From Phycisphaerae bacterium (GTDB lineage Bacteria; Planctomycetota; Phycisphaerae; UBA1845): a stretch of 64,000 nt of DNA. The stretch lies in contig CAXXGO010000005.1 of the NCBI GenBank assembly GCA_963666835.2, positions 128,001-192,000 of the forward strand, written 5' to 3'. The notes under the pieces are model-generated. The model made no database searches, was not told the origin of the DNA, and saw only the letters and a list, made by a program, of their open reading frames with translations. The number at the start of each line of letters is the position of its first letter. Position 1 is the first letter of the stretch. A program made the position numbers and the translations under genes. Below, one piece after another: positions 45,744-64,000 of the stretch.

Positions 45744-45802
45744 TTGCTCCCCTCGCCGACACCCCATATCAAAGACCGCCATCTCTCTTCGTGCGGGGCG
45801 TG

Positions 45803-45864
45803 CTGTGAACACAATCACACTGCTAACTCATTCACAGTATACAACACCGCGCGCCCGCGGTCAA
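45803..45864 (-). promoter_or_regulatory. Sigma70-type promoter with tandem Rex operators
   Basis: Minus strand TTGACC (45864-45859)-N17-TATACT (45841-45836); boxes TGTGAA-CACA-ATCACA and TGCTAA-CTCA-TTCACA. Confidence 0.8.
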
Positions 45865-45961
45865 GCGGATAACCGGATTCGGGTGTACCATTCATTCTGG
45901 TCGGTTGCGCGTTAAAGCGACAGCGGAGGCGCGGTGTGGATGCGCGGGTGATCGCGCGACC

Positions 45962-47001: not shown

Positions 47002-50000
47002 TTAGTTCGGACCGCTGAACGCCTTCTGGAACAGGGCGAGGTCGGCCAAGTCCACGGTTCCGCTATCGTCCATATCGAAGCAGGTGCAGCCGTCTTGCAT
47101 CGCGATATCCGGACCGGCCAGGCACTCCGCCAGGATTCCGAAGTCATCCAGGTCGGCATCGTTATCCATGTCGCAATCGCCCGACATGTTCGCCACGGTC
47201 ACCAGGGTGACGTCGTTCTCACCGTAGATGATCTCGGAGCCGCCGGCGTTGTTGATCGTCTGGCCGTTCAGGAACTCAAACTCGCCCGTTCCGGATTTGA
47301 ATGTCATAATCGTGAACGAGTCGCCGGGTAGGGGCTTGAATCCGTCAACCAACTCGATGGACAGCTCGCCACCGAGGTTAGCCGTTCCCTTGTGGGTGAT
47401 CTGATCGTGCTTCGTTCCGGGAGTCAAGCCCCCGATCTGGATCTCGACCGTGCCCGCGTAGGTGACATTCCCGCGACTCACGCCGGCGGGGCCGGTGTAG
47501 CCGGGAGAATCGGTGCCGAGGATGGTCACGTTGTTCAATGTGCCTAATCCTCTTATGTATCCAGTCAGTTCGATCTGCTCGACAGCGGAGTTCCCGAGGA
47601 TCGCACCGTCGTTGGTCAGTGACTTCGTCGGGTCATCCAGTGTTTCGATGACGCCGTGGCCGGTAACATGATCGCTGGAGGTCAGCCCGAGGCCGTTGGG
47701 CACGGTTAGCGTACCGCCGGCAATGCTCGTCGAACTGCCCGTGAAGAGCAGTCCTTGGTGATTAAGCGTTACATGATGGGGACCGACGGTGAGGCCACTG
47801 CCTATCTGAACTCCGCTGCTGCTATTGAGATTGCCGACCGTAAGATCACCGGTCGCCGTGACGGTGCCGGCCGTCCAGAAATCGCCGTTGACCGTGCCGA
47901 AGTCGTGGAAGTTCGCAGCAAGCATATCGAATAGCTCGGCGTTGATCGTTCCGCCGTTCAGGGTCGTTGCGAGGATGTTGAGAACGGTCACGTCCTGCTC
48001 CACCGTCACGGTTGCACCGGGTGCCAGGGATAGCGCGTGGATGTGCCCGCTGCCGTAGTCGCCGGACCCGATCAGCAGCGATCCCGGCATGGTCCAGGTC
48101 GAGCCCGCATCGTAGAGCGCGACCGGCGTCCATCCGTCGCCGACGATTGCCCCGTTCAGGGTCCCGCTGTTCGATATATCCAGCGGGCCTCCAGACAAGT
48201 CCAGAATACCGGAGCCATGCACCGCGACGTCACCGGTAAGATCCAGGTGGGGTGTCTTGACGATTCCGTTGTCGATTTCGACGGCAAACCCGTCCCAGAT
48301 TTTCGTCGTTCCGCCGACGATGAGCTTCGCGCCGTTATCGACGTTGATCATGCCGGTGCCCCCGGCGGTAGCCGAGTCGCCTCCGGCGTACAACGAACCG
48401 CCGCATTTCCACTGGGTGCCGCTGCCGGAGAGTGCGACTTGTGCCGTCGTGCCCGCCTCGGCGGCTATGTAGGCATTGTTGTTGAACACCTTCGCCCCGT
48501 TGGCAACCGATAGCTGCGTGCCCTCGGCACCGCGCACCATCAGGGTGTTGGCCATTGTCCAATCCGTGTTTGCGCCGGTGAGGATCGCCGAGCCCACCCC
48601 GGATGCGTTGCCCACGACTCCGGCACCGCTTTCGACGGCGGCACCACTGCCTATGGTCAGGGTTCCATTCGTGGTCGGCCCCACGAAGAGAGTGTCGGAA
48701 ACCGACAGCGACTTGTGGCCGGTGATCTGCAGGTCGTCGCCGAACGGCTCGCCGCTATCGATACTCAGACTGTCGTTCGTGACGTTGATCGAGCCGGTGA
48801 CCCAATTCCAGGCCGTTTCGCAGCCCGTGAGCGTCCCGGCGTTGATGGTCCCGCTGCTTGTAAGGTTGATGTCGCAGCTCGAGTTATGATAGAGCTGGTT
48901 CGTTACTTCTAGCGTTCCCCCATCCACATCGATCGTGCCCGCGGCGTTTAAGTTGGCACAGGCGGTGACCCCGCCATTGGCGGTGAGTGTGCCGTTGTAG
49001 AAGACATCCAGTTCCGCGGCCTCGAACTCTCCGCCGTCAACTGCGATCTCGCCGCCGTTTCGGAGATCTACGTCGCCAAACTGGGCGGAACCGGTGAACA
49101 CGTTGATCAAGCCCGAGGACCAAACCGTCGTGTCTCTCCACACCCGGACGTGTCCCCCGCCCGTCCAGACCAGACCTTCGCCTCCGGGGCCCGTGTCGTC
49201 TCCACCGACGACCAAGTCGCCATGGCAGAACCAGTCTCCCGAGTAGGAGCCGTTCTTACTCACGAAGACGGTGCCCTCCGCTCCGGGCTCCGCACCAACA
49301 TACGCGTCACCGGTGTTGCTGAGCTCGCCGAGCACCGTAACCATCCCATATCCGTTCTTGCCGATGGTCAGTGAACCGTCGTTTGCCCAGGTGCCCCAGA
49401 TTTTCGCGTGCCCGGCCGATCCGAAGGTCACGCCCAGAATCCCGGAACCGTTGTTCAGTTCGCTTTCGTCGTGAACCTCCAGCCTGCCCACGCCGTTGGA
49501 TCCGACCCAGGTCGGGTAGGGACTGGTCCAGATGACCGGACCTTCGTAGTCATAGAACTGATCTCCAAGTTCGAGGGCGCCCTCACTGAGGTCGGCCTGG
49601 CCAAGCAGGACCATTCCGCCCGCGTTCACGTAGCCGGGCGGGGCACATTCGCTCGTGCCGCCAAACAGCTTCAACGAAGCCGTTTGCCCGGCGGTGGTCC
49701 CGACCCTGGCGGCCGTCTTTACGAAGCTGTCGGAGCCGAGAAGATCGTACGATACCGGAGCCATACACCCGGCGGATGCGGGTACTCCGAGCATAAGAGT
49801 GACGTCTCCCTCGGCCACCGTTAGATCCTTGGTTGTCGTCGCAAGTTCTCCGAAGTACACGCTGGTATAGCCGGACCGGTCGAATACTGCGGTATCCGAG
49901 CTTGCCGGTGGCCCGGTCGGCGTCCAGTTTGCGGGGATGTTGAAATAGCCGCCGGATGGCCCGGTGTACTCGTAGACGGCGGCGTACGCGGGCTGCAAGC

Positions 50001-50061
50001 ACGCGACGAGTGTCAAAGCTACGCCAATCAACCGCGGTAGGGGTATTACGTTCTTTCTCAT
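47002..50061 (-). CDS. Large secreted beta-helix/adhesin-like protein with dockerin-like C-terminus
   Basis: Signal peptide; Gly-rich repeats of the T5SS/PEP-CTERM-associated type; GDCDMDNDADLDDF..CFDMDDSGTVDLADL. Confidence 0.8.
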   Translation of the reverse strand: MRKNVIPLPRLIGVALTLVACLQPAYAAVYEYTGPSGGYFNIPANWTPTGPPASSDTAVFDRSGYTSVYFGELATTTKDLTVAEGDVTLMLGVPASAGCMAPVSYDLLGSDSFVKTAARVGTTAGQTASLKLFGGTSECAPPGYVNAGGMVLLGQADLSEGALELGDQFYDYEGPVIWTSPYPTWVGSNGVGRLEVHDESELNNGSGILGVTFGSAGHAKIWGTWANDGSLTIGKNGYGMVTVLGELSNTGDAYVGAEPGAEGTVFVSKNGSYSGDWFCHGDLVVGGDDTGPGGEGLVWTGGGHVRVWRDTTVWSSGLINVFTGSAQFGDVDLRNGGEIAVDGGEFEAAELDVFYNGTLTANGGVTACANLNAAGTIDVDGGTLEVTNQLYHNSSCDINLTSSGTINAGTLTGCETAWNWVTGSINVTNDSLSIDSGEPFGDDLQITGHKSLSVSDTLFVGPTTNGTLTIGSGAAVESGAGVVGNASGVGSAILTGANTDWTMANTLMVRGAEGTQLSVANGAKVFNNNAYIAAEAGTTAQVALSGSGTQWKCGGSLYAGGDSATAGGTGMINVDNGAKLIVGGTTKIWDGFAVEIDNGIVKTPHLDLTGDVAVHGSGILDLSGGPLDISNSGTLNGAIVGDGWTPVALYDAGSTWTMPGSLLIGSGDYGSGHIHALSLAPGATVTVEQDVTVLNILATTLNGGTINAELFDMLAANFHDFGTVNGDFWTAGTVTATGDLTVGNLNSSSGVQIGSGLTVGPHHVTLNHQGLLFTGSSTSIAGGTLTVPNGLGLTSSDHVTGHGVIETLDDPTKSLTNDGAILGNSAVEQIELTGYIRGLGTLNNVTILGTDSPGYTGPAGVSRGNVTYAGTVEIQIGGLTPGTKHDQITHKGTANLGGELSIELVDGFKPLPGDSFTIMTFKSGTGEFEFLNGQTINNAGGSEIIYGENDVTLVTVANMSGDCDMDNDADLDDFGILAECLAGPDIAMQDGCTCFDMDDSGTVDLADLALFQKAFSGPN

Positions 50062-50840
50062 GACAGTCACTTTCATTCTCTTTCTGCTTCTTCGCAATCA
50101 GAACCGAGGTGGTTCGCTCGATAAGGTCTTGTGGCCGATTCTTGTTCTTTCTGGTTTCAGTCGGAGGCAGCGTTTTTGTTCTCGCCCGGCATATCCGTCT
50201 GAGACTCATGCTCGCGGAACCTGTCCTCCAGATTCCAATCTCCAGGCCGCCGGCCGCTGCGGATAGCCATCTCGGCTTGAGCCTCGCGGATCCCCCAATC
50301 CTCGCTACGCCCGGTACTCCACTTGATCTTCGGTGTCACTCTCTTTCCTTCCTTTTCGTTGGTGCGGTCAGAACCGAGGTGATTCGCACCTCGGCATTTG
50401 CGGTTCGACTCAGGCCCACGCGGCGTCCCCAAGCCACTGATCGTTCAGGCTGTTTCGCCGGCCGGTCGCCGCCGTCCGGCGACCGCCTCACAAAAGGGTT
50501 CGCATGACGTGCTGGAATCAGCCCCGAAGAAGCAGAAAGATCTTTTGGACGCGGGGTCTGCAGGCCGCGACCGGCCTGGCCGGTTGTCAGAGCAGTTTGT
50601 TATCGGGTCTTCGGGTGCTGATTGAGGATTCTGGAAGCCCGTTCCGGCGCGCTGAAGCTGCACGCGGGTTTTGGTTTCGAACCGGCGTCGCGGGCTGCCG
50701 GACGATGCGTTTTGCAGAGAGTATCTGCCGGCTTCTTGAGGGCCGCGACCAATCCGAGGCTTCAGGCGGATTCCGAAAAGGCACGGGACGCCTTGATTAC
50801 TGCGGTAGGGCGGCGTCGCCCGCGATCGGCCCGACCCGGC

Positions 50841-51425
50841 TTATGCGCCCGGGGCGTCTTCGCATTCGAACTCCGCCATTTTGTTGCGTACTCGCCGTAG
50901 CATCCTGGCCTTGGCTTTGTAAACCTGATTGGGGTTCATGCCGAGTTCGTCACAGGCCTCGGTGACGGGGCGACCTTCAACGACCACGATCGAGAAGGCC
51001 TGGAAGGTCGCTCGAGAAACCTCGTTGCGAAGCTGTTCCACGCAGTGCTTGAGATGCTGGTTCTTCCACTCAATCTCCCAGACTTGCTCCGGGGATAGGT
51101 GGTCGTCTTGAATTTGACGCAGAGCGCCGGTGTTGGCCTGATGCTCGCGCCTCTTGCGGAACAGGTCTATGACGCGGCGATCGACCATCGTTCGTAGCCA
51201 GGCCTTGAATCCGCCCTTCGCTCGGTCGTAGTCAAAGGTCTGGATCTGCTGCACGATGGCCTTGTAGCACTCTGATCGAATATCGTCGGCGTCATCACGG
51301 TTCAAGCCGCGTTTGCGGGCGTATCGGTAGATGAGCGGCGCGTAGAGATCGTGAAACTCCGACCATGCTTCAGTGGAGTTGGCGTCCCTGATGCGGATGA
51401 GCAGACTGGCCCGTGTCGTGTTCAT
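50841..51425 (-). CDS. ECF sigma factor (planctomycete type)
   Basis: TTRASLL..AWSEF..YAPLI, FDYD..GGFKAWL, NQVYKAKAR. Confidence 0.9.
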   Translation of the reverse strand: MNTTRASLLIRIRDANSTEAWSEFHDLYAPLIYRYARKRGLNRDDADDIRSECYKAIVQQIQTFDYDRAKGGFKAWLRTMVDRRVIDLFRKRREHQANTGALRQIQDDHLSPEQVWEIEWKNQHLKHCVEQLRNEVSRATFQAFSIVVVEGRPVTEACDELGMNPNQVYKAKARMLRRVRNKMAEFECEDAPGA

Positions 51426-51663
51426 AGGGCTGAATTCCTCGGCGACGTGCAGTCCGGATTCCTGGTAAGTTACGTTCCCGGTAGGGCGGATGGCCCGAGC
51501 GTTAACTCCGAATCGTCCTTAAGCTGAATCCCGCAGCACGGCAGCCCGTTTGCGCGGCCGACAGACATTTACGCGGCACTCCGGTTCTTCGGCCCACGGC
51601 AATAGACTCCATCACCTTGCGGGCATTCTATCGGTTTGCGGCTGGAACCGTCAATCAAATCGC

Positions 51664-51803
51664 CGCATCGGCCTGTTCTTTGCCCGCGAAACCGACCTTT
51701 ACTGTAACCGCGTCCGCTATTACGATCCGCTGTTGAACTGTATTCTGAAGGCGGATCCGAACGGGAAGGGGATGGTGCCGGTGGATGGACTGGCCATGAA
51801 TGG
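51664..51803 (+). pseudogene. Degenerate Rhs core-end relic
   Basis: RIGLFFARETDLYCNRVRYYDPLLNCILKADPNGKG versus [36 protein letters not shown] at ~4455-4562. Confidence 0.8.
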
Positions 51804-51842
51804 AGGGACTCGGAGTCGGAATGAAGCGTCGGAGGCACGTAC

Positions 51843-52250
51843 ATGTCAGCACGAGATGTCGGACCACGTATTCGCTGTCCGTCATGTAGCTTCTCTCTTA
51901 CGGAGAAGGAGCAGGTCGCCCGCGTTTGCGACAATTGTGGCAGGGTATTGGATGAGGAGTATCTTCGGATCAGCCGAGAAGACCTGGGAAGAAAGGAGCT
52001 TCGTGAGAAGCGAGTGATTCTCCTGCAACATGCTGTCGGTGGGCTTGGTATGATTATGATTGTGCTGGGGGTAGCCGCGGTCATTGCGAACAGGTCAAAC
52101 TGGTCGTGGATGACGAGACGGGGCCTCGGTTTCATCGTCCTCACCGGGGTTGTTATTGCCTGGCGATGGCGTGAGCGTGAACCGATGTGGCCTGTTCTTC
52201 TTCTGCTCGGGATCTTCTGGCTTGTGATGGCGTTGTTGTGGGGATTCTGA
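51843..52250 (+). CDS. Zn-ribbon multi-TM protein
   Basis: CPSCSFSL..CDNCG followed by three hydrophobic segments. Confidence 0.65.
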   Translation: MSARDVGPRIRCPSCSFSLTEKEQVARVCDNCGRVLDEEYLRISREDLGRKELREKRVILLQHAVGGLGMIMIVLGVAAVIANRSNWSWMTRRGLGFIVLTGVVIAWRWREREPMWPVLLLLGIFWLVMALLWGF

Positions 52251-52429
52251 TGCGGTGGCACGACGGGGGGAAGAAGGAGGAGAGGGCCGGGATCTGTTTC
52301 GCGGCACGCGCCCGCCTTGTGTAGAACAACTTGCGTACAAACGTCGCAGGCTAAGACAGGGACAGAGGAGAATAGGAGAGAAAGACCTCCTTTTTGGGTC
52401 CCGACGATGCGAAAACCGCGCTACAAACG

Positions 52430-52804
52430 CTAACGAGTGCGTTTAGTATCTGTAAGCTGTACATACAAGGTCTCCAGTTCCCCGTCGCCAGTTAGCACGT
52501 ATGCGACGTGCATGTAGTGTGTCTTTCCGTTGCCGAGCGGGACCACCACTCGATAATCGCCCGGTCCTTCTTCCGTGATCAGACAATCCGTACGGGTCGA
52601 TGCTTCGAGGTACGGCTCCACTTCGATAAGAGACGCGGCGTAGCGCCCATTCTCGGCCTTATACGCCGCAACCGCGTCACGGATGATCCCGGTATGCCAA
52701 TGCCGGACATTGCTTTCAATGTCAGGCACCAGGATCCACGCAGCAACGCAAAGGAGCACGGCTGCGCAGGAGTGCATCGCAAGTCTCCGTCTTGGAGTTG
52801 TCAT
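52430..52804 (-). CDS. Small membrane-anchored protein
   Basis: N-terminal TM; AVAAYKAENGRYAASL; ATGA overlap with the upstream gene. Confidence 0.55.
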   Translation of the reverse strand: MTTPRRRLAMHSCAAVLLCVAAWILVPDIESNVRHWHTGIIRDAVAAYKAENGRYAASLIEVEPYLEASTRTDCLITEEGPGDYRVVVPLGNGKTHYMHVAYVLTGDGELETLYVQLTDTKRTR

Positions 52805-53205
52805 AGCTGTCTGCTTTCGGCATCGAAGGCCCCCTGATTCTGCTTCTCTTGCAAGCATACCGTCCGCCGGCGTAACCTCCGCTCGACGGGCAAGAGCAAG
52901 CAAGCCAGGATCCCCGACCCGAGCATGACGAGCAGCACGGGAAACTGCAAGCAGAATCGCCCATCATTCAACTCCAACCGAAAGCTGCTATCCACATTGT
53001 CCCAAGCAATACTCGACCCTTCACTAAGGCCTCCATAGAGCCGAAAGGCCATCCCGCTACATCCGACTTCCCAGCCTTCGGCCAGGTCGATGCTCCATCG
53101 TCCTCCCGTGGTCATGACGACAACAACGTGAAACAACAGCGCACCACTCACAATGGTCGCAAGCCACCTCATCCGGCGGACGAATCGTACACGCTTGAGC
53201 ACCAT
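52801..53205 (-). CDS. Two-TM hypothetical protein
   Basis: GGAG RBS, two hydrophobic segments. Confidence 0.55.
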   Translation of the reverse strand: MVLKRVRFVRRMRWLATIVSGALLFHVVVVMTTGGRWSIDLAEGWEVGCSGMAFRLYGGLSEGSSIAWDNVDSSFRLELNDGRFCLQFPVLLVMLGSGILACLLLPVERRLRRRTVCLQEKQNQGAFDAESRQL

Positions 53206-53217
53206 GCCGTCTCTCTC

Positions 53218-54234
53218 CTACGGTTTGTCAGGGGCCTTTTCAGTGGATGATTGCCGCTCCTTCTTCTCCTTTGCCCGGAAGAGCTGTTCGTCTATCTTGT
53301 AACGAAGTTCCGCAACCTCCTGTGACGAAACGTCGGTTTGCGGATAACGCGCGATCGCTGTTTCCAGCACCTCGCGGGCACGCTGTGCATCATCGAGGCG
53401 AGTCAGCGACTTCACCGCCTGGAACAGCAGATTGTCTGCCAGCGGAAACGACTCGTGCTCATTGGCGAACTTCAGGGCGCGTTCGACCGCCGGCGTCCCC
53501 TCTTCCACGTCCTTCGTTCTCATCGCATAGAACGTGTCCCAGTAATCGACCCACAGCGAGAAGACTGAGTTCGGGCATTCCTCCCTGATGTACCGGAGCT
53601 TCCGCCGCACCTCGTCCGGGTCGCCGCCGCACGCCCAGGTAGCATCCGGCCCGGGTGTGCGGGAGACACCCTGCGCGTAGTATGGCACCTTGGGCAGTAT
53701 TTCCAAGACGCGGGCATCCTCTCCTTGTGCCTCAGCCACCGTCAGCTCAAACGGCTCCGATTGGACCACCGGAGGACAACGCAGCGCCCCGTAGACCCGA
53801 TATCGCCCCGGTGGCAGGAAGTGCGGTCCATTGGTCACACCTTGCCCATCTCCGCCTGCGAGGCCCTGCAGACACATCACATGATCCGTCTCTAGGCGTG
53901 CCCCCGGAGGGAACGGAGCTCCTGGAGCTCGAGCGCCGTCACCAGCGAGAAGGCGCAAGGGTTTGAGAGTATGCTCCCGTCCTTGCGCGTCGACCGCATA
54001 GAGCGTGAACAGGTCATAGGCCTTCATGCTGCTCCCGCGCTTGAAGTACATATGCCGGGTTGCGTCGCCACGGTTCTCCAGAACGATCCGAAGAACAAGT
54101 GGGCCGCCTTGCACCACAGTGTTCTCATACGGGCGGACCGCGAGATTCAAACCTCCACTATCCCCGCCAATCGGCGGGGCACTCCACAGTGTTGCCGATA
54201 GCAGCGTAATCATTCCGTAACTTAACATCGCCAC
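53218..54234 (-). CDS. Secreted Ig-like + TPR-like partner protein (paralog 5)
   Basis: Signal peptide; GGPLVLRIVLEN, FLPPGRY, SEPFELTV, EECPNSVFS, RYPQT. Confidence 0.75.
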   Translation of the reverse strand: MAMLSYGMITLLSATLWSAPPIGGDSGGLNLAVRPYENTVVQGGPLVLRIVLENRGDATRHMYFKRGSSMKAYDLFTLYAVDAQGREHTLKPLRLLAGDGARAPGAPFPPGARLETDHVMCLQGLAGGDGQGVTNGPHFLPPGRYRVYGALRCPPVVQSEPFELTVAEAQGEDARVLEILPKVPYYAQGVSRTPGPDATWACGGDPDEVRRKLRYIREECPNSVFSLWVDYWDTFYAMRTKDVEEGTPAVERALKFANEHESFPLADNLLFQAVKSLTRLDDAQRAREVLETAIARYPQTDVSSQEVAELRYKIDEQLFRAKEKKERQSSTEKAPDKP

Positions 54235-54337
54235 GCGCCTGCCTTCCTACATCGCCGATGTTGATTCCTTACTCCTGCTGGGTCTCTCCGGCACTTAGCA
54301 TCTCCTGCGGACAATCCTGCAACACACCTCGCAAGAT

Positions 54338-54386
54338 CCACCAGGCAGCACCGAACGGAATCACCCGCTCGGTGCCGCGGGGTGGC
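54338..54386 (-). repeat. Hairpin repeat, copy 3
   Basis: GCACCGAACGGAATCACCCGCTCGGTGCCGCGGGGTGGCA matches the copies at 57 kb and 61 kb. Confidence 0.8.
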
Positions 54387-54514
54387 ATTGGATCAGCAAC
54401 CATGTCCAACAATAGCGGCGTACGTTCCTGCCGTATCCGAGCCGGCGGGCGAGGAAGTACCCGCTCGACGGCAGATCCCCTCAACAAATACTCCCGACCC
54501 ACTCCCCGCCTCGG

Positions 54515-55462
54515 TCATCCGCTGATACCCCACGTCTTCAGCGCGGAAGCAGCCCTTGGACCGTAGTCCAAGGAGTACGGAGACTGCTCGACTCGCTCCA
54601 GGAGGCCCTTCGCCTTTCGCCGAATGCTTGCCGCCTCGGAAGAGGGTTTGTCCTGCTGACGCTTCAGTAGGTCGAGCTCCACAAGGGCGAGCGTGTAAGC
54701 CGCATTGGCCTCGGATTGCGAACGGACCTCGCCGCCGCAGTACGGCTCGTAGTACCGCCGCGCTACCGCTACGCGCTCGCGTAGGAGGTCATCGATGTCC
54801 ACGCCGGGGCCGCCGCGCAGTGCCGCCAGCTTCACCGTACCGAGGAATACACTCAGGCGGGCGGTATAAGCGGTGTCTGGATGCCGCTGGAGCATCCGTT
54901 CCACCCGCGGAGCCAACTGCCTGGCTCGGTTGTCTGTCGGGTTGAGAATGCCAATCGCAAACTCGACGCCAAGTTCCCGAATCATCGCAAGCAGCTCCCG
55001 TTCATGATCCGTAGGCTGCTCAACGACAACGTCGACCTTTGCGCCTGGATACAGTTCCACACTATAGGCGCCTGGGGCTCCGAAGACGTATTGCCTATCC
55101 TCCGTATTCCAGTATAGCATTGCTACGACCTGGACCACGCTCGCGCCACTGTCTTCCCGCATGACGGATGATCTGTTCAAGGACGTCATGACTACCGGAT
55201 TGGCGTTGAAGCTCAAAAGGTACTCTCTCTCGTTTATCAGTATACGACTAAAGAGTTTTGTCAAAACGCTCTCCAACCCGACGTGATCCGAGTGGGATTC
55301 TATTTCCACATCCAGGACTACAAACGCGGGTTGACAGGGCTTAATGTGAACCGTCTGAGGGGATGATATGCGGACGGAACGGATCATGGACTCGCCATGA
55401 GCCACCGGTGACATCAGACAGTGTGTTACAATAATGTACGTTAGATACCGACTTCCTACCAT
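54515..55462 (-). CDS. Secreted Ig-like + TPR-like partner protein (paralog 4)
   Basis: Start overlaps the peptidase stop; YVFGAPGAY, QRHPDTAYT. Confidence 0.75.
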   Translation of the reverse strand: MVGSRYLTYIIVTHCLMSPVAHGESMIRSVRISSPQTVHIKPCQPAFVVLDVEIESHSDHVGLESVLTKLFSRILINEREYLLSFNANPVVMTSLNRSSVMREDSGASVVQVVAMLYWNTEDRQYVFGAPGAYSVELYPGAKVDVVVEQPTDHERELLAMIRELGVEFAIGILNPTDNRARQLAPRVERMLQRHPDTAYTARLSVFLGTVKLAALRGGPGVDIDDLLRERVAVARRYYEPYCGGEVRSQSEANAAYTLALVELDLLKRQQDKPSSEAASIRRKAKGLLERVEQSPYSLDYGPRAASALKTWGISG

Positions 55463-57006
55463 TTCTCTACCTCCCGAAAACGCTTCAACGTTGGACTTGT
55501 GAATGTCGTATGCACCTCCTGCAGATTGGCGGACATCAAACCGCCTTCGGCATGATGCTCTGCTTCCGTACCGGTGTTGCCAGCCGAGTGTCCGATCTCA
55601 TGGGCCAACACTTGATCCTCGAAATAATCATACTGCGGCACATCGGCGATCGTGGCCCTAAAGACAATACTGTCCCAATCGCCAATACTCCCCATCCATC
55701 CGCTTTGCTCCGTCTCGTTATACTCGGCGCCAGGCCAGAATGGCCCGGAGGGATACGTAGAGTTGTCCACCAGCGGATCGGGGTCCATATCCCGGTGGCC
55801 AGCCGCAACAACATCGCCGCCCGCCTGATACCCTGCCATGACAAAGGTCGTCCAAAACTGATTGCTCGAAAAGCGATCTTCCCGGGAGTCATTCCACCCC
55901 CAACCACTCGTCATCTGAGTCCACGTAACATAGAGATCGAACGGTATAGTCCGAGTGAGATTGTATTGTTCATCGAGCTCGACGATGTCGACGTACGCCT
56001 GGGCGAACGCGTTGCGGATGAAATCGTCTACCGTGTAGAAGTGGGGCAGGAGTGGCTCGATGGGATCATCGTCCCTCTCCACCGCCCAATGGCCTACCAG
56101 GGCATTGATCTCAGCGGCTGTAAGAACAACGTCGATATCGACCGTCGAACGCGCGTTGTTCCACACGGAATACTCCAGGCCAAGGGCCTGAAAGATCAAT
56201 GATCCCCCTTCGTATTGATGTTCACTTGCCCCTTGTGAGAACACTCCAAGGTCCAGCGTAGTGGTTGTTGCATTAGCAGTTCCTCCCGTTACATACACGC
56301 CGAACCAGTCCGGCTCCCGCTCCATCGGGTCTGTCGGTTCGCTAGTCATCGAATCGAACTCCACATGCAGCTTCCGCCAGACGGTCAGCATCTCGCTCCA
56401 GACGAGTGGGACGCTGTAGAAGGAGCCGCCGTAGGGCCCTGGATAGAAGTCGGGCGGATCACCGTCGGGAAACGAGCTGAATTCATCCGCGTGGGTCTGA
56501 GTCACTTGGTCCTCGCCGATTGCATCCTCCAGGCACGAGGCCCCGGCACGGTAGTTGTTGCCCGGCTGCATGGATACCTCGATCGTCACCACGGCTCGCC
56601 GATTGTCATCGGTTTTCGCGGCGTACGTGCCCACGGCCGGGTCCGGTTGGCCCGACGGCATGCGATTATCCGGCCCCGACTCGTCGTTGTCGATAAGCTC
56701 GACCTCGCGGACGGTGTTGACTCCCTGTGGTCCGTAGATCTGATCGAACGGATCATCCACGTCCCAGACCCTGAAGTGTACACCAATCCCAGCCACAGGC
56801 GGATGAACCGTGGCCACGAGGTTCACCTTCCGCCTGTCCGCCGCGAAGTCACCGTCGCCCGGATTCGTCAACCCCGGAAAAATCCGGCGTCCGCCGTTGA
56901 TCGGGCATCCGTCCAACTCCGGATTACCCGCCGCGGCCACCTCCCACTCGAGCCGGGTGACTTCGAAGACGAGGATCTCGAAACCTGCCCACGGCCAAGA
57001 CCGCAC
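55456..57006 (-). CDS. Headless zinc metallopeptidase cassette 3
   Basis: HEIGHSAG...HH..GGLM; N-terminal ~215 aa shared with cassette 2; no signal peptide or RBS. Confidence 0.8.
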   Translation of the reverse strand: MRSWPWAGFEILVFEVTRLEWEVAAAGNPELDGCPINGGRRIFPGLTNPGDGDFAADRRKVNLVATVHPPVAGIGVHFRVWDVDDPFDQIYGPQGVNTVREVELIDNDESGPDNRMPSGQPDPAVGTYAAKTDDNRRAVVTIEVSMQPGNNYRAGASCLEDAIGEDQVTQTHADEFSSFPDGDPPDFYPGPYGGSFYSVPLVWSEMLTVWRKLHVEFDSMTSEPTDPMEREPDWFGVYVTGGTANATTTTLDLGVFSQGASEHQYEGGSLIFQALGLEYSVWNNARSTVDIDVVLTAAEINALVGHWAVERDDDPIEPLLPHFYTVDDFIRNAFAQAYVDIVELDEQYNLTRTIPFDLYVTWTQMTSGWGWNDSREDRFSSNQFWTTFVMAGYQAGGDVVAAGHRDMDPDPLVDNSTYPSGPFWPGAEYNETEQSGWMGSIGDWDSIVFRATIADVPQYDYFEDQVLAHEIGHSAGNTGTEAEHHAEGGLMSANLQEVHTTFTSPTLKRFREVEKW

Positions 57007-57080
57007 TGCCGCAAGTTATCGCAAACCACCCGCGGCACCGAACGGAATCACCCGCCCAGTGCCGCGGGGTGGCACTAATG
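56996..57080 (-). repeat. 85-bp hairpin repeat, copy 1
   Basis: 83/85 identical to 61032-61116. Confidence 0.9.
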
Positions 57081-57986
57081 TAATGACTACGCCGGGCCGT
57101 CAAAACAACTCCCGATCCCGGTATTCGGCCCCTTTCTTCTTCGGTGCTTTTGTCTATATCTATGGACTTGACGCGCGGACCTTCTGACGCTCCGCATTCT
57201 CGAAGCGTTCCCTGACGACCGGGATCCCTTCGCGCGCCTCGTCAATGAGACCCTGAACGGTACCTTGTCCGGGAGCCGCGACCTTGGCCGCTGACAGCAA
57301 CCGCTGCGCCGCTTCGAAATCCAGAGCAATCATGCGCAAGTATCCGTGCTGATACAGCGCACGCGGTTTCAGATAATCATCCGCGTGCTCGGCAGCTAAC
57401 TCGAATGCTCGGAAAGCCCGTGCTGACTTGTCGCTCTGCATTATCAACTCGGCCCGGCGCGTTCCCTCTTCAAGGTCGTCTCGACGTTCTCCTTGCTTCC
57501 TCTCGTCCCGTAGCACATTCCTGGCATCGCCAAGGCATAACCCCGAATAACAACAGCCCGCAAAGTACGCGGCGTATGGCGCGTAACTGGATTCCGGAAA
57601 CTCCTGTGCCAAAGCCGCCAGAGAATCAGCCCAGCGCAACGCGGGTTCGAACCCGCCGCACTGCCCGACAATCGCGCCCGGCTCCCTCGCTCGTGTGGCC
57701 TCTAAGATCTCTCCGACCACCAGCAAGGCACGCCAGTCAGCACCGGCAGGACTTGCCGCCCAGGTTCGCCTTCTCTCATCGGGGAGGTTCGCGAGCGGAT
57801 CGCTCCCAAGCAAGTCTGCAAGGAAGTCCGACTCGCTAACACGTTCGATGAACGCTCGGTCCGGCTCACCGGCCGGCAGAACCGTAACGCTCCGCTCAAT
57901 TGTAAGAGGCTCGGTCTCATCGTCCTTGAATGCAACCTGCCAGCGCAGCCGGCATTCGCCCGGGTGTTCGAAAAGGAATCGCTCTT

Positions 57987-59028
57987 CCTGATTCTCTACT
58001 TGACTCCGGCGGCTAAGTACGGTATTTGTTAGGGCTTACGATTTCATGGTTCATGGAGGAGGTCGGCCATGTCTGACGAGATTCGCCCGAAGCATCCCGT
58101 GCCCAAGATCTTGGATGTAGCGTCGTTTATGCGTCGCTTCGGAGATGATGCGGCCTGTGCCGCGTATCTGCGTAAAGCTCGCTGGGGACCGAACCTGGAA
58201 CGGTTCGTCTGCCCGGACTGTGGGCATAGCCGCGGATGGTGGCTCCCGACCCGGGGGCTCGTCGAGTGCCGGGAGTGTCACCATCAGACCTCACCGACGG
58301 CCGGCACGGTGTTTCACGGTGCCCGCGTGCCGCTCTGGAAGTGGTTCTGGGCTATGTATCAAGAGGCTCACTCGAAGAAAGGCCTCGCGGCCACGGCGTT
58401 GGCCAAGCAGATCCAGGTCTGCTACCAGACTGCCTGGATGATGCTGCAGAAGCTCCGCGAGGCCATGCGTCAACGATGCCAACGTTATGTCCTGCAGGGA
58501 CTTGTGGAGGTCGACGAGACATACGTTGGCGGCCGGGAACCGGGTCGGCCGGGGCGTGGAGTGGAGAAGAAGGTCCCAGTGGGAGTGGCCGTCGAGCTTG
58601 ACGAGAACGACCGGCCTAAGCGAATCGCCATTCAGGGACTGAAAAGCGTCGACGCTCGAAGCCTGAGGGGTTTCACGACGAGACACGTAGCGAAGGGCTC
58701 ATGTCTCCGGACGGACGGATGGGGAAGTTACGTTTCAGTGGCCAAGGCCGGGTACGAGCACGAGGCAATCGTGACGGGCGGTGGGAAGAATGCGGTTCAA
58801 ATTTTCCCCTGGGTTCACACCTTCATCGGCAACCTGAAGCGGATGATTGTGGGCACATATCACAGCGTTTCGCCCAAACACCTCGACCGTTACCTGGCCG
58901 CGTTCACCTATCGGGCCAACCGTCGCTGGATGGAAGCAAAACTCTTCGATCGCCTTGTTATCGCGGCCGTAGCTGCCAAACCACTGACATTAAAGGAGTT
59001 AACCACCGGAGCGAGGTAGAGAATCAGG
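57987..59028 (+). mobile_element. IS1595-family insertion sequence, copy 2 (1042 bp)
   Basis: Same IRs as copy 1; TSD TCGCTCTT at 57979-57986 and 59029-59036. Confidence 0.95.
58069..59019 (+). CDS. IS1595-family transposase
   Basis: Same protein as 552-1502 except GHSRG versus GHNRG. Confidence 0.93.
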   Translation: MSDEIRPKHPVPKILDVASFMRRFGDDAACAAYLRKARWGPNLERFVCPDCGHSRGWWLPTRGLVECRECHHQTSPTAGTVFHGARVPLWKWFWAMYQEAHSKKGLAATALAKQIQVCYQTAWMMLQKLREAMRQRCQRYVLQGLVEVDETYVGGREPGRPGRGVEKKVPVGVAVELDENDRPKRIAIQGLKSVDARSLRGFTTRHVAKGSCLRTDGWGSYVSVAKAGYEHEAIVTGGGKNAVQIFPWVHTFIGNLKRMIVGTYHSVSPKHLDRYLAAFTYRANRRWMEAKLFDRLVIAAVAAKPLTLKELTTGAR

Positions 59029-59374
59029 TCGCTCTTTTCCTACACCCCAATGTGCCGCAAGCGGCGTCAAAACGATCGTCTTCTCCTCAGAGTACGCTAT
59101 TGATCCGAGAAACTCGCCCGTTCGGTCGGGATCGGTATCAGCGAATTCATACTTCTCCCCGTCGGTGCTTGTCCAAAGCGACACATTCCTGACTTCACCG
59201 CGGTTCGGGAAAGCCATCCTCTGTACGATACAGCTCTTCGAACCTACCGTATTCTCCACCTGTGCATTTGGCTCGGTGGCAGCGGCATTGTATGCCGGTG
59301 CAAACGTCAGAGAAACCACCACAGCCAAACACCGTACCGTAAGTTGTTTCGCGTGCATTATCATATCTCTCAGA

Positions 59375-61042
59375 TTAAGGTCCACAGTAGTTTCTAAGTC
59401 TGTTGAGGCTCTCGCCAGCGAAGGGCAAGTCCTGCCCTGGGCCCTTCGGGTCCATCAGTCCGACCGGCGGACCTTCGCCCTCGTAGGTGTGCGGAAGCCC
59501 AAGTGTATGCCCGACCTCGTGAGCCACGGTGAAACGCTCCTGGCGTTCTGATTCCGCAGGGCCCAGCGATATTGCCTTGAAGACGACGGCTAGCCCGGTG
59601 GCGGAATCCGGTAGCAGCACGTGCGCCTTTGTGTTACCGTCAGGGTGACTACAAATGCCGAGTGTTGTCCCAGGATCTGCCAGCTCTGAATCTGGGTCGC
59701 CATCCTGGTTTGCCTCAGCTTGCCATGCGGACACGACCATCACAGTCCAGTACGCAGAAGTAGACTTGGGTAAGTCTCTGACTCCCGGAGCCGTTACGTC
59801 ATCCCAGAGGTCCTTGCCATAGAAATCAGTGACCCCAAAGCCCTGGTTTCGCCGAAACGGAAGACTACCCAAAGCGCTCAAACCGCTCTCATGCACGGGA
59901 TGGATGAAGGCAGATCGATAGCGAACCTCGAGAGCACTCAGATCCGGAGGTTCAAGTGCGCCTGGCCCACCGGTGTACAGGCCGTCACATCCCCATACTT
60001 GGGCCGCGAATGTCCCCTCCTCCGACAGATCGTCATCACTGAGCACAGCCTTGCCGCTTTGCACACCTTGCAGACAAGCCAGGCCGCTTATACCGCCACC
60101 GCAGTCAGGGATATTGATAGTTACTTCGTCTTTGAAGTCCAGGTCGTCGATGATCCCCTCATCGGTGGTGTAGTCGACGATGCGCCCGACGACCAGTGGG
60201 TTTCCGGCCGAGTCGCTGACTTCGGCATAACCATGCAGAAACTGTTGGTCATCCGTATCCGAATCGTCCGCCGGCGGATCATCCACTTCGAATCGCACTT
60301 GCGTGGACACCGGTCCCTGCTCTGGCTCGCTCCAGTCCATTTCGAACGTATTCTGTCCGAACGTTGGTCGCATCATGCTATCCGTCTCCACGTGCAGCTT
60401 CCGCCAGACCGTCAGCATCTTGCTCCAATATAGTGGGGTCCGGTAGCTGAACGCGTTGCCGCCTCTGTGGAACTTCGGCGGATCGCCGTGGAGCGATGTG
60501 CAGAGTTCGTCGGCGTGGGTCTGGGTCACCTGGGGTTCGCCGATTGCATCCTCCAGGCACGAGGCCCCGGCACGGTAGTTGTTGCCCGGCTGCATGGATA
60601 CCTCAATCGTGACCACGGCACGCCCATTATCATCCGTTTGCGCGGCGTATCTGCCCACGGCCGGGTCCGGCTCGCCCGACGGCATGCGATTGTCCGGCCC
60701 CGACTCGTCGTTGTCGATAAGCTCGACGCCCGCAACCGGCTGCACACCGTCGCCGGGCGCACCGTTCGGGCCGTAGACCTGATCGAACGGATCATCCACG
60801 TCCCAGACCCTGAAGTATACCCAGATGTCTCGCTGCGGCGGCTCGACGTACGCCGCGAGCTTCACCTTCCTCCGGATCACCCCCAACTGGTCGCCCGGAT
60901 GCGTCAACCCCGGGAAGATCCGCTTGCCGTGGTTGATCGGACATCCGTCCAACTCCGGATTACCGGCCGCGGCTACCTCCGACTCTAGCCGGGTGACCTC
61001 GAAGACGAGGATCGGGACGCTTGCCGACCGGCAAGACCGCAC
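59375..61042 (-). CDS. Headless zinc metallopeptidase cassette 2
   Basis: HEVGHTLGLPH...GLM metzincin motif; shared N-terminal block ending TVWRKLHVExDSM. Confidence 0.85.
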   Translation of the reverse strand: MRSCRSASVPILVFEVTRLESEVAAAGNPELDGCPINHGKRIFPGLTHPGDQLGVIRRKVKLAAYVEPPQRDIWVYFRVWDVDDPFDQVYGPNGAPGDGVQPVAGVELIDNDESGPDNRMPSGEPDPAVGRYAAQTDDNGRAVVTIEVSMQPGNNYRAGASCLEDAIGEPQVTQTHADELCTSLHGDPPKFHRGGNAFSYRTPLYWSKMLTVWRKLHVETDSMMRPTFGQNTFEMDWSEPEQGPVSTQVRFEVDDPPADDSDTDDQQFLHGYAEVSDSAGNPLVVGRIVDYTTDEGIIDDLDFKDEVTINIPDCGGGISGLACLQGVQSGKAVLSDDDLSEEGTFAAQVWGCDGLYTGGPGALEPPDLSALEVRYRSAFIHPVHESGLSALGSLPFRRNQGFGVTDFYGKDLWDDVTAPGVRDLPKSTSAYWTVMVVSAWQAEANQDGDPDSELADPGTTLGICSHPDGNTKAHVLLPDSATGLAVVFKAISLGPAESERQERFTVAHEVGHTLGLPHTYEGEGPPVGLMDPKGPGQDLPFAGESLNRLRNYCGP

Positions 61043-61116
61043 TGCCGCAAGTTACCGCAAACCACCCGCGGCACCGAACGGAATCACCCGTCCAGTGCCG
61101 CGGGGTGGCACTAATG
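61032..61116 (-). repeat. 85-bp hairpin repeat, copy 2
   Basis: 83/85 identical to 56996-57080. Confidence 0.9.
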
Positions 61117-61190
61117 CCTTAAGTGTGGTCGGCCTTCAGGTATATCTCTTATTCAGCCAAACCGCCCGCGCAGTCATGCTTCGTGCAACA

Positions 61191-62138
61191 CTATCGTTCT
61201 TCTGTCTGGCGGGTCTCCTTCAGTAGTTGCGCCGCTTTCTGAGCAGACTTACTATTCGGAAATTCCGATATGAGAGTCTGCGCCACCCGGCGCGAGTCCG
61301 CAATATCGTCGGCGAGCGCATAAGCGACAGCCAGATCAAGGAGGGCTTTCTCTCGAAGCGGATGCCAGCCATCGAAAACAGATGCCGCCTTCCTCAGCTC
61401 CGTGGCAACTGGTGCCCATACCCGTGGATCGGCTCCGCTGTTATGCGCCGCAAAGGTGGTCTTGTATTGCATCAATGCAAGGGATACGATTGCGTACTCA
61501 CCGTATGGGGTGTCGGGGAACTCGCGAGCGAGATGATCAAAACGTCGAAGTGTCTCCTCGCTTCCCTCATGTTCGAGAATCGCAGTCAGCGCAACCGGAA
61601 AGCTGCTGCGAAAAAACTCCGCAGCCTCTCGCCGGGTCTTCCCCGGGTTGCGAACCGTGATCGCGATGGGGTTGGACTCGAGACCGTATTCGCGGTCGCG
61701 TACGAGCAAGGTGTACGCGCCCGTGTGCTCCGAGTGTACAAAATCCCCTCCACGATCACGCTCTTGGGGGAATGCAAGGCCCGATGTCGTGAATTCGCTG
61801 GCTGGTCCGTCAGTCGGCACGAACTCCGCGCCGCACAGCAGGCCTTTGCACACCATCTTGTTGTTTGGATCTTGAAGCACGATATCAAAACGTCGACGTA
61901 GCCTGCGCAGTTGCCTGGCGGCCTCGCGGGGATCATCTGCACCCGGACGGAACGGTTCCTCCAGATGTACAGTGACCTCAACGGCAAGTGGTTCGTATAG
62001 CAGGAAGCTCTCTTTACAGACGTTTGCCGTCAGCGAATCACCGTTGGCATGCGGTGCTATGAGCGTCAAACAGAAAACCAACGTGAGTCCGAAATTCAGT
62101 GGTCCAATCGACCTTACGCACATAATGTTAAACTCCAA
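61191..62138 (-). CDS. Secreted Ig-like + TPR-like partner protein (paralog 2)
   Basis: Signal peptide; YEPLAVEVTV, HTGAY, SNPIAITV, LAREFPDTPYGEYA. Confidence 0.75.
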   Translation of the reverse strand: MEFNIMCVRSIGPLNFGLTLVFCLTLIAPHANGDSLTANVCKESFLLYEPLAVEVTVHLEEPFRPGADDPREAARQLRRLRRRFDIVLQDPNNKMVCKGLLCGAEFVPTDGPASEFTTSGLAFPQERDRGGDFVHSEHTGAYTLLVRDREYGLESNPIAITVRNPGKTRREAAEFFRSSFPVALTAILEHEGSEETLRRFDHLAREFPDTPYGEYAIVSLALMQYKTTFAAHNSGADPRVWAPVATELRKAASVFDGWHPLREKALLDLAVAYALADDIADSRRVAQTLISEFPNSKSAQKAAQLLKETRQTEER

Positions 62139-62335
62139 AAGGATGCTAATCGACTTCTGTAATCTACCAGGTGGCCTCGCGCCGGAATATCACAATTGAC
62201 TCGGCGGCGAAGTCGGCCAGATCCACGTCGCCGTCGAGATCTGTGTCGAAAGCCATCAGACAGGCATGCAGTCGCCGGCCTCGCCGCGTGAATAATTGCC
62301 CGACCCTCTTCAGCGAAATCGCCGGTCTCGCATAC

Positions 62336-63457
62336 CTATGGACTGGTTGCTTCCCTTGCCTTTCGGGCTTCTATCTTTTCGCGGAAACGTTGCATTTGCC
62401 CCTCAAGCTTGTCCGCGATTCCCGGCCCACCAATGTCCGGACACTGTTGGCGCAAGGCGCCCAGGTATTCGCTAGTCTTCTCCCATTCCTGCGCAAGACC
62501 GTGTAGCCAGACCAAGTTCTCCAGCGCCGCCGTGCGCGGCCAGACATTGGCGTCTTTCGCCATCGTGAGATAATGCAGTGCTTTCACGTAGGCGGGATGC
62601 GCTCGGGCTCTTTCGGGATCGCGCTCGAGCCAACCCGCCAAACTTGCTTCGTGTTCCAGGGTCTTGACGTATACCAATCCAAGGTACCGCGCGATGTAGC
62701 CCGAGTACACTGAATCCGGGTAACGCTCCAGCGTTTTCGCCAATGAATCGACCAGCTCCATTTCTCGCTTGTCATCGGGGTCGATAAGGTACGGCTTGGT
62801 CTCGCTGGTGATCTGTGCCAGAAGCAGAATTCCCTCCTGGTCCAGCCCCTTCTCCGCCTCCGGTGCGTTCAGGTCCAAATGGTCCGCATCGTCTCCGATG
62901 TGGTAACGCAGTGCGATCAGTTCAAGCTGCGCGAGGCATTCCTCGTTAACACGTGACATCGGAAGCACGGTCACCCGGGTCTCATTGCTGTAGACGAGCG
63001 CCTTTCCTAGGCCCGAATAGAAGTTCCATCGAAGATGGTACTCACCGGGGTTCGGAAATACGTAGTCGTTTCCAAAATCCAGTAACACCAGGACATCGCC
63101 CGTAGTTGTTTTGCGCGGCCCCAATTTTTTCTCGGTGCGTTGGGGGCCGCTACGTTCCAAGGAAAGCGAGTGCTCGCTATACGGTCCATTATCGCAGGAC
63201 GTTTCAAGGGCCATTCGCACCGGCGCACCGCCAGGCCGCACGAGCAGCGTAAGCGGCTCGTCCCGCAGATTCCTCACTCTGACGTGGGCGATGATCGGTT
63301 CCCGCGCCTCAAAGGTCGAACGTTCCAGGTTGACATCAAACGCCACGACCTGTGAAAACGCAAGTGCTTGCTCGCCGTTCGCCATCTGACCTAATGCTGC
63401 CGCGACGGTCACCCCTTGCAACAACAAGCCTTTCGTCAAGTTGGTAGTCAAAGTCAT
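62336..63457 (-). CDS. Secreted Ig-like + TPR-like partner protein (paralog 1)
   Basis: Signal peptide; REPIIAHVRVRN, YVFPNPGEY, SNETRVTV, LERYPDSVYSGY. Confidence 0.78.
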   Translation of the reverse strand: MTLTTNLTKGLLLQGVTVAAALGQMANGEQALAFSQVVAFDVNLERSTFEAREPIIAHVRVRNLRDEPLTLLVRPGGAPVRMALETSCDNGPYSEHSLSLERSGPQRTEKKLGPRKTTTGDVLVLLDFGNDYVFPNPGEYHLRWNFYSGLGKALVYSNETRVTVLPMSRVNEECLAQLELIALRYHIGDDADHLDLNAPEAEKGLDQEGILLLAQITSETKPYLIDPDDKREMELVDSLAKTLERYPDSVYSGYIARYLGLVYVKTLEHEASLAGWLERDPERARAHPAYVKALHYLTMAKDANVWPRTAALENLVWLHGLAQEWEKTSEYLGALRQQCPDIGGPGIADKLEGQMQRFREKIEARKAREATSP

Positions 63458-63527
63458 CTTCTCACTCCTTCGTGCTCGGTCAAGTTACCTTGATGTCCTA
63501 ACCGCAGCATACCGCTGCTTCTCAGAT

Positions 63528-64000
63528 CTATGGCTCAACATACTCGCGGAGCGTCTTAAGGCTCTCCGCAAGAAACGCCGGCCCCTGTTCAGTCTCGTCC
63601 ATTAAGCCACCGTCGCCGGGAATTGCATGAGCGCCCAAATGTGGTGCGCCTAGCGTGTGGGCAATCTCGTGCGCTACAACCCGCGGCGCCTGAACATCAG
63701 CGTAACCGTCTCGCAACGTCTCGCTGAAGACCGCCGCCATCCCGGTGTATGAGTCGCCCCAAAGCAACGGGGGCGAAGTACTTCCCTCGCGATGCGTCGT
63801 TGCCCCCTTCGTACCCGTGCCTTCTCCGTCACAATCGGCACTCGCCTCCGCCTGGAACGCAGAGAAGATATAAACGGTCCAGAAGGTAGCCCTCGAAACC
63901 GGCAGCCCGCGGAGCACCAAGCGCCCGGGATCCCAGTTCGCTTTGGTTTCGGGCCTGAAGTTCTTGTAGAAAGGATACGCCCCTTCGGAGGTGTACTGCG
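63528..64000 (-). CDS. Zinc metallopeptidase cassette 1 (3' part; continues beyond the window)
   Basis: FWTVYIFSAFQAE and HEIAHTLGAPH...GGLMD..ESLKTLREY align with the C-terminus of cassette 2. Confidence 0.8.
   Translation of the reverse strand, partial: QYTSEGAYPFYKNFRPETKANWDPGRLVLRGLPVSRATFWTVYIFSAFQAEASADCDGEGTGTKGATTHREGSTSPPLLWGDSYTGMAAVFSETLRDGYADVQAPRVVAHEIAHTLGAPHLGAHAIPGDGGLMDETEQGPAFLAESLKTLREYVEP

Follow-up and report, generated by a model that had tools for sequence, protein, structure and literature searches.

A candidate polymorphic array of metzincin tips and leader-bearing partners in a Phycisphaerae genome

What kind of system is encoded where frames for zinc metallopeptidases are each followed by a gene for a leader-bearing protein? 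The question is raised by a stretch of 64,000 nucleotides (the window) from a Phycisphaerae bacterium (assembly GCA_963666835.2, contig CAXXGO010000005.1), which corresponds to G000:C5:128001-192000; positions are those of the window unless prefixed with G000, C1, C6 or L. An earlier note, made from the letters alone, had proposed a non-Rhs polymorphic system with a peptidase as its variable part, and this holds: the locus has no RHS match and its variable tips are metzincins. We regard it as a real, conserved and apparently undescribed variant of the polymorphic toxin-immunity arrays, in which the binding of tip and partner is predicted and the toxicity of the tip is presumed. Probably, an exported Cys-rich stalk protein with a metzincin tip is used against related neighbours, and leader-bearing partners block the tips.

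Organization of the array and its parent

The three co-oriented HExxH frames seen earlier are present on the minus strand (63528-64000 and beyond, 59375-61042 and 55456-57006), each followed by a gene with a hydrophobic N-terminus. The array comprises a parent, two headless tip cassettes and six partner-type genes, all in one direction (minus strand). Its distal end lies at 52430, beyond the bound of 53218 given before, and it holds further tip-less partner genes and 52-nt hairpins. The six partner-type genes exceed the three tips: one is split by IS1595, and three are found without their tip, one of these with a 12-codon scar. The features are as follows.

63528..64000, minus strand: 3' end of the parent gene (whole frame 63528-67316, G000:C5:191528-195316), with a type 1 tip
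62336..63457, minus strand: partner 1, 373 aa, with a hydrophobic leader; cognate to tip type 1 and predicted to bind tip 1
62164..62202, minus strand: scar of a displaced tip, its last 12 codons and stop; 10 of 12 residues equal the end of the L046 tip
61191..62138, minus strand: partner gene without a tip, 315 aa, related to the partners that accompany the scar's tip type (51% to L024, E 4e-91)
61059..61110, minus strand: junction hairpin copy 1, an imperfect stem of 21 pairs with a 4-nt loop
59375..61042, minus strand: orphan cassette A (cassette 2), 555 aa, headless shared block and metzincin tip with canonical zinc motif
59037..59385, minus strand: 5' piece of partner 2, its start overlapping the cassette A stop
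57987..59028, plus strand: IS1595 element, 1042 bp, transposase at 58069-59019, 8-bp target duplication at 57979-57986 and 59029-59036
57160..57986, minus strand: 3' piece of partner 2; both pieces jointly match the partner family found after A-type tips (35% to L097, E 1e-63)
57023..57074, minus strand: junction hairpin copy 2, with a 5' flank (to ~57120) resembling a Y1/HUH transposase element end
55456..57006, minus strand: orphan cassette B (cassette 3), 516 aa, headless shared block and divergent metzincin tip, third zinc ligand displaced
54515..55462, minus strand: partner 3, 315 aa, cognate to B-type tips (44% to L100, E 9e-82)
54336..54387, minus strand: junction hairpin copy 3, with no tip fragment after it
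53218..54234, minus strand: partner gene without a tip, 338 aa, related to the partners that accompany yet another tip type (29% to L111, E 4e-20)
52801..53205, minus strand: gene for a small membrane protein, to which related arrays have weak homologues (L109, E 3e-6; L035; L030)
52430..52903, minus strand: tip-less partner of a small type (E 4e-17 to the gene after the L043 tip), distal array end

The full-length parent, expected upstream of 64000 with the shared block, is a frame of 1262 codons from stop to stop, running from 67316 down to 63528, with a probable ATG start at 67166. Its basic and then hydrophobic N-terminus is signal-like (by eye, a long signal peptide) and is followed by an unnamed N-terminal domain, which acidic repeats interrupt, then by the Cys-rich stalk, the motif NNDDD, the shared block at aa ~765-965 and finally the type 1 metzincin tip. 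No Pfam or NCBIfam match was found over the frame, including the haemagglutinin repeats of the contact-dependent inhibition (CDI) type; the RHS/YD repeat core has no Pfam match in the parent, and the Rhs gene of the same genome hits PF05593 at E 6e-26 in the same scan. Upstream lie frames that by eye resemble a CBS-domain protein and a threonine synthase, with no TpsB neighbour. Judged from its sequence, the system is neither Rhs nor CDI.

A profile search with the N-terminal domain (~110 residues) gave 155 representatives. The domain occurs in 29 of 72 genomes of the family and in none of 178 genomes from ten other families of the same order, and has no match in the ESM Atlas. Among 60 listed hits of at least 600 aa, two of them clearly unrelated and some truncated, only 4 end in the metzincin tip. 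The C-termini of the carrier hits, taken with seven C6 frames, form 13 clusters plus singletons; in a Pfam scan of 50 carrier proteins, two deiminases and one beta-helix protein are named and no nuclease C-terminus. Two clusters of well-conserved C-terminal tips, one from P0038, P0075, P0122, P0140 and P0154 and the other from P0086, P0116, P0121, P0127, P0149 and P0167, are candidate new enzyme families; neither has a Pfam tip match or a significant sequence match in the PDB.

A sister array is located at G000:C6:2236232-2263480 (L004, L005), with a parent of the same N-terminus at C6:2236232; the first ~610 aa of the C5 and C6 parents are common (59%) and their C-terminal domains differ. Behind the C6 parent come four hairpin-headed orphans, whose DNA is 91-96% identical to its Cys-rich block, and further tip-like frames. 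The tips of this array are mutually unrelated (several HExxH types, an Ig-like one and an arginine deiminase, E 1e-61), and each tip-like frame is followed by an unrelated partner-like gene; three tandem paralogous partners are also present, the first with a weak HEAT-repeat match.

The metzincin tip and its partner

Related loci were collected in two scans, which confirmed 185 and 122 stretches; counts are given for the best 79 and the best 76, that is, 155 loci. The shared block is present in all 155, and more than one block-bearing frame in 21 (16 without four duplicates and one frameshifted gene). The record titles of the closest loci read Phycisphaerae or Planctomycetota, and those of tip-bearing loci also Verrucomicrobiota, Acidobacteriota and other Planctomycetota. 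Within the same family, 24 of 100 genomes carry the metzincin tip.

The zinc motif and Met-turn had been reported for all three frames of the window. The motif HExxHxxGxxH is canonical in the parent and in cassette A, whereas in cassette B the third histidine is displaced. In the parent tip (tip numbering) the zinc and catalytic residues are H262, E263, H266 and H272, with Met285 as the Met-turn; H262, E263 and H266 are invariant in 82 tips and Met285 is nearly so. The 308-residue model of tip 1, folded with 82 relatives, has a predicted local distance difference test score (pLDDT) of 93, and its structural matches include adamalysin, ADAM, ulilysin, archaemetzincin and fragilysin (best Z 13.8, root-mean-square deviation 3.1, 165 aligned residues). 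All of the top 28 matches are metallopeptidases, with Z from 13.8 to 7.8. For a first model, of cassette A, which was weak (pLDDT 60), Foldseek gave only Ig-like matches. A beta-barrel is inserted in the tip at about residues 15-105. No Tox-MPTase family is found among the Pfam matches of the 82 tips. The modeled fold points to a likely metzincin protease domain.

As noted earlier, cassettes A and B share an N-terminal block, with 76% identity over 217 aligned residues up to the word WRKLHVExDSM, and fall to 25% after it. This word, with which the block had been taken to end, forms the first strand of the metzincin domain, and the tip identities are 39% for parent and A, 23% for parent and B and 25% for A and B. 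On alignment, the divergent halves are homologous members of one metzincin family, not unrelated toxins.

The metzincin fold of the tip, which is near those of ulilysin and mirolysin (Z 12.3 and 11.7), would also suit a harmless or nutritional surface protease with a self-protecting inhibitor, similar to the KLIKK peptidases and their potempins, in which swaps would change the substrate range and would not serve attack on kin. Linked, specific inhibitors that protect the membrane of the producer are known (PMC9890683, in its available part). The same tip also ends carriers with RTX, Calx-beta, TSP3, transglutaminase and C25-peptidase domains (Pfam matches in 8 of 14 long frames tested), which, apart from the transglutaminase carriers, adds to this explanation. 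We nevertheless consider it unlikely, since it offers no reason for keeping partners without a peptidase, of which the window has three and related loci about 12, and leaves five or more partner types in one array unexplained.

Tip and partner are closely spaced. Partner 1 follows its tip after a gap of 70 nt, and the starts of partners 2 and 3 overlap the preceding stops by 11 nt (GTG) and 7 nt, in agreement with the two overlapping or near-abutting starts described before. Partner linkage, proposed earlier for the window, also holds across relatives: 143 of 152 complete tips are followed by a close co-oriented frame of at least 120 aa, with six at contig ends and three without one. A hydrophobic N-terminal stretch is found in 133 of these 143 partners compared with 69 of 715 internal control windows; 8 of the 143 are lipobox-like, and partner size is 315-390 aa. 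The partners form 22 multi-member clusters among the related loci. For tips whose partner belongs to such a cluster (n=96), the nearest tip has the same partner cluster in 89 (shuffle mean 6.7, maximum 16), and tip similarity correlates with partner similarity over 111 pairs (rho 0.33, shuffle maximum 0.08). In 10 of 14 listed loci, the tips of a single contig are paired with partners from different clusters.

Partner 1 probably consists of a beta-rich N-terminal half and a helical, TPR-like C-terminal half. The ESM Atlas gave one unnamed cluster at 0.95 for it, and the sequence search against solved structures gave no significant match for the two partner clusters searched, with weak alpha-SNAP hits (E 0.012). 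Co-folding of tip 1 with partner 1 gave a score of 0.86, while the best of 3 controls reached 0.00; of 157 solved pairs 116 attain the co-fold mark, and of 215 mismatched pairs 2, figures that apply roughly, since author-made alignments were used. The runs agree in at least 92% of contacts, the pLDDT of the partner is at least 90, and the interface has about 120 contacts. It involves tip residues 213-218, 275-279 and 287, which we take to be the rims of the active-site cleft, together with 168-172 and 229-232 and the inserted barrel. Tip 1 is thus predicted by this model to bind partner 1; the co-fold speaks to binding, not to inhibition or specificity.

So large an interface, taking in the inserted barrel, and the TPR-like half of the partner would also be expected of a tip-specific chaperone or trans-acting prodomain on which folding or export depends, the whole protein serving either as an effector directed at eukaryotic hosts or grazers or as an adhesin in kin recognition. 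Fragilysin, a fold neighbour of the tip, has a prodomain that works in this manner, and the arginine deiminase tips could act on proteins of whatever origin. This explanation appears very unlikely to us: a chaperone without its client is useless, yet the tip-less partners are intact, and effectors aimed at eukaryotes usually come without linked immunity genes and cassettes (PMC3482391, in the sections available).

Cassette exchange, leftover partners and the junction hairpin

Both cassettes open three codons past an in-frame TAA, at a GTG without a Shine-Dalgarno-like word or a hydrophobic leader, so that their earlier description as frames with neither signal peptide nor convincing start stands. 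Stand-alone cytoplasmic peptidases in a simple tandem gene family could be supposed from the intact frames (555 and 516 aa) with kept catalytic residues and from their poor match to the parent block. The lack of a leader and the opening just past a stop argue against it, as do the copies in relatives, which start at many points of the block, often directly after a partner stop, many being short or frameshifted; we consider such a family extremely unlikely.

The exchange of tips is best seen in two near-identical contigs, L056 and L110. They share the block (93%) and differ in tip and partner, and 99% identity resumes at the last ~60 nt of the old tip and runs through its partner. Read from the sequences, this difference is a tip swap, and the scar in the window, a 12-codon remnant of the matching tip's end just before the tip-less partner at 61191-62138, is a trace of the same kind. 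In L021 and L045, parent and orphan share 1.8 kb at 98% and the tips differ; P0006 and P0010 have a near-identical N-terminus and different tips. The tip-less partners of the window (61191-62138, 53218-54234 and 52430-52903) have their homologues among the partners of tip types that the window lacks. In related loci about 12 tip-less partners were counted, after removal by eye of 7 of 19 automatic calls.

Recombination through the shared block, as proposed before, is borne out by the L056/L110 swap but not by the present orphans, and here the evidence weighs against our interpretation. The parent block is only 49-51% identical to those of A and B at the amino acid level, and the longest exact DNA shared with it is 17 nt for A and 13 nt for B (68 nt between A and B, 91-112 nt in the C6 array). 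Because of these values the orphans are poor donors for the current parent. Their reuse by this parent seems doubtful, and from sequence they are best read as cassettes that belonged to a foreign parent allele or to an earlier one.

One tip-partner cassette, found at L056:2314-3841 and L194:12945-14510 (98.5% DNA identity) next to different preceding neighbours, suggests that cassettes move between loci. The joints of the C6 sister array were considered as tip swaps within the sample and rejected as ambiguous repeat artefacts, none being readable. In L073, L077, L078 and L090 a non-coding-looking repeat of 110-280 bp (76-88% identity) is shared just after the partner gene. At 62170-62300 a fragment that we take to be dockerin-like is fused to the displaced-tip scar, and similar short stretches occur elsewhere in the genome.

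The array has also been altered by insertion and loss. Partner 2, which had been described as a secreted gene directly following its peptidase, is in fact split by the 1042-bp IS1595, an element with seven full copies in the genome at 99.6% identity or more. A contig of run X3 bridges the IS1595-free site, so an intact partner 2 allele exists in a sister strain. A contig of run X5 joins window position 51503 to 55130, which is a 3.6-kb loss at the distal array end.

A 52-nt stem-loop heads orphans A and B and the tip-less partner at 53218. Of its 17 copies in the genome, the C5 array has three, the C6 sister array four and an Rhs orphan array eight; the other two lie next to runs of genes for small membrane proteins. 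The hairpin is almost confined to polymorphic arrays, and is joined to unrelated sequence in each. In the stem, 95% of cells pair, but no two-sided pair change was found and the covariation score equals that of shuffles. The wobble is one-sided in favour of the gene strand, with G:T against A:C at 58 to 4 by cell and 11 to 4 by distinct column event. No hairpin was found by BLAST in 40 relatives; in the family, single weak hits (22-28 bits, compared with 68-120 here) occur in 5 of 100 genomes; among 94 of the 155 loci the best E is 0.0065, and no hairpin is shared after the partners of relatives. Orphans of relatives often start after a partner stop without a hairpin, so the system does not require it.

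A Y1 transposase element at C1:1181457 ends in a 13-nt word whose consensus recurs in the 5' flank of the hairpin. The word has 39 exact occurrences in the genome (counted by hand) against 0.6 expected, and lies within one mismatch at 4 of the 17 hairpin flanks. At G000:C1:1181375-1182139 a Y1/HUH transposase gene is placed between inverted copies of the word, and throughout the genome the word also occurs in many inverted pairs without a gene, spaced about 80-115 bp apart. The nine Y1 matches of the genome all lie outside the arrays. The flank resembles the terminal repeat consensus of the TIRYT elements of TnpA-Y1 subclass 2.1 (Quentin et al. 2018, PMC6006769, as far as the available text describes them). 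Unlike these, it is present at one end only and has no Y1 gene in the array; most hairpin copies, among them two of the three window copies, have it in degenerate form or lack it. TIRYT-like words after the partner stops of relatives (19 of 129, compared with 6% in controls, in non-independent loci) were not used.

Other roles for the hairpin were considered. It is annotated neither as terminator nor as promoter, with counts at shuffle level. No Rfam family lies on it in six loci, the only match being a group II intron that ends ~110 nt before one hairpin copy, and no RNA holder is listed. An integron was rejected: no IntI exceeds the TIGR02249 cut-off in this 92% complete genome, and the hairpin lacks the AAC...GTT boxes that we take as the attC core consensus. 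Most likely the hairpin is a 3' stem-loop that has been copied along with cassettes in this lineage; a bolder interpretation makes it the site of an enzyme. In contigs of runs X1 and X3 it is preceded by flanks of which some were not recognised among the 17 copies (L193:6574-6576, window ~57074), and these samples may contain more copies. The Rhs orphan array with eight copies (G000:C6:1057715-1080625; L002, L003) has a stop in its long Rhs frame at 1059013, several small membrane proteins among its partners that carry a zinc-finger-like CxxC motif at the C-terminal end, and a group II intron with a reverse-transcriptase frame (L003:93-2034).

A wider proposal joins these elements. A weapon platform of this Phycisphaerae family, made of the unnamed domain and a disulfide-rich stalk, would display interchangeable enzymes (metzincins, arginine deiminases and unknown folds) outside the cell, with bespoke exported inhibitors, and in this genome a single-strand hairpin fused to a HUH-transposase end would capture cassettes, without an integrase, into three unrelated arrays including Rhs. 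We consider this distinctly unlikely as a whole.

Outside the array, the window encodes a 1031-aa secreted-looking Gly-rich repeat protein (47002-50097) with a dockerin-like motif at its end and no Pfam match, beside a gene for an extracytoplasmic-function-type sigma factor (50841-51425). At 42642-46777 lie genes that by eye resemble NADH dehydrogenase or hydrogenase subunits E and F, a Rex-like regulator and a histidine kinase.

Proposed mechanism and comparison with known systems

In the mechanism that we favour, the starting point is the observed array of parent, two headless tip cassettes and six partner-type genes in one direction. As read from the sequences, tip and partner are exchanged as a unit, through a 5' crossover in the shared block and a 3' join just after the new partner. 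Each replacement leaves a short scar of the old tip with its partner, or a headless cassette. The parent would be exported via its signal-like leader and act outside the cytoplasm, and the partner is predicted to dock beside the active-site cleft and on the inserted beta-barrel. Headless cassettes would be silent, and leftover partners would protect against relatives still using those tips. The least certain element is the hairpin, which may be an RNA or single-strand stem at the 3' end of a cassette that travels with it.

Besides the distance between parent and orphans, several points weigh against this mechanism. The target and toxicity of the tip are what we infer from sequence, and no dedicated transporter gene flanks either parent (C5, C6). 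Canonical spacing of the third histidine is found in only 49 of 133 family tips, and the zinc ligands are absent from the named interface residues. The controls of the co-fold were unrelated proteins, and close cousins can pass the test. Neighbouring genes are co-inherited, so that tip-partner matching alone does not show cognate inhibition, and 4 of 14 multi-tip loci reuse one partner cluster.

The system would add a conflict system acting outside the cytoplasm, with a new carrier domain, in a barely cultured lineage. To our knowledge, protein inhibitors of metzincins are few, and the 22 multi-member partner clusters would be a natural library of matched metzincin-inhibitor pairs. One scaffold would be retuned in it to many protease variants, so that specificity could be probed directly by exchanging cognate for non-cognate members. 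How orphan immunity genes come about can be seen from the scars and from L056/L110, and the shared hairpin gives a handle on orphan cassette assembly.

No paper on this system was found in a full-text search, in which most subscription journals are uncovered; Additional File 1 of PMC3482391 may list some of the proteins. The comparisons below hold for the available parts of the cited papers. Toxin-then-immunity order with strings of leftover immunity genes is the signature of polymorphic toxins (PMC3482391). At the sequence level, the features by which such toxins are recognized are found here: a constant body with a variable tip, headless cassettes, tip-partner order and exchange. With those that carry Tox-MPTase1-5 tips (Zhang et al. 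2012, PMC3482391) the array shares constant body, variable zincin tip, stand-alone cassettes and leftover immunity genes. Tox-MPTases are found on RHS repeats, with no immunity protein listed in the available part of that paper, whereas each tip here has a leader-bearing partner of 315-390 aa, and the carrier is an unnamed domain with a Cys-rich stalk, with no RHS, filamentous haemagglutinin or type VI or VII secretion marker.

As in the Rhs and CDI orphan modules, the headless cassettes begin with a block shared with the parent and are followed by an immunity-type gene, and the same genome has such an Rhs array. The carrier is different, the partners have leaders and the tips belong to one enzyme family. 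In the accessible text on Stenotrophomonas Rhs modules (2026 preprint, 10.64898/2026.07.13.738213) no such hairpin is described.

The KLIKK peptidases of Tannerella forsythia each have a linked specific inhibitor, a potempin, that protects the producer's membrane (PMC9890683). The likeness lies in secreted peptidases, some of them metallopeptidases, with linked specific inhibitors; potempins are lipoproteins of 98-132 aa encoded upstream, whereas the partners here are downstream, about three times larger, rarely lipobox-like and swapped with the cassette.

In function, the array would be most like VgrG2b-PA0261 (PMC6899460, PMC9846239), by analogy. This pair and Tpe1-Tpi1 (PMC6899460), both of the periplasmic effector-immunity kind, likewise join an HExxH peptidase with a downstream, envelope-targeted binding partner. 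Delivery there is by the type VI secretion system on VgrG, and the available text describes no orphan array; here no VgrG domain or type VI secretion gene is linked, and the peptidase tip stands at the end of a Cys-rich stalk, within an array of exchangeable cassettes.

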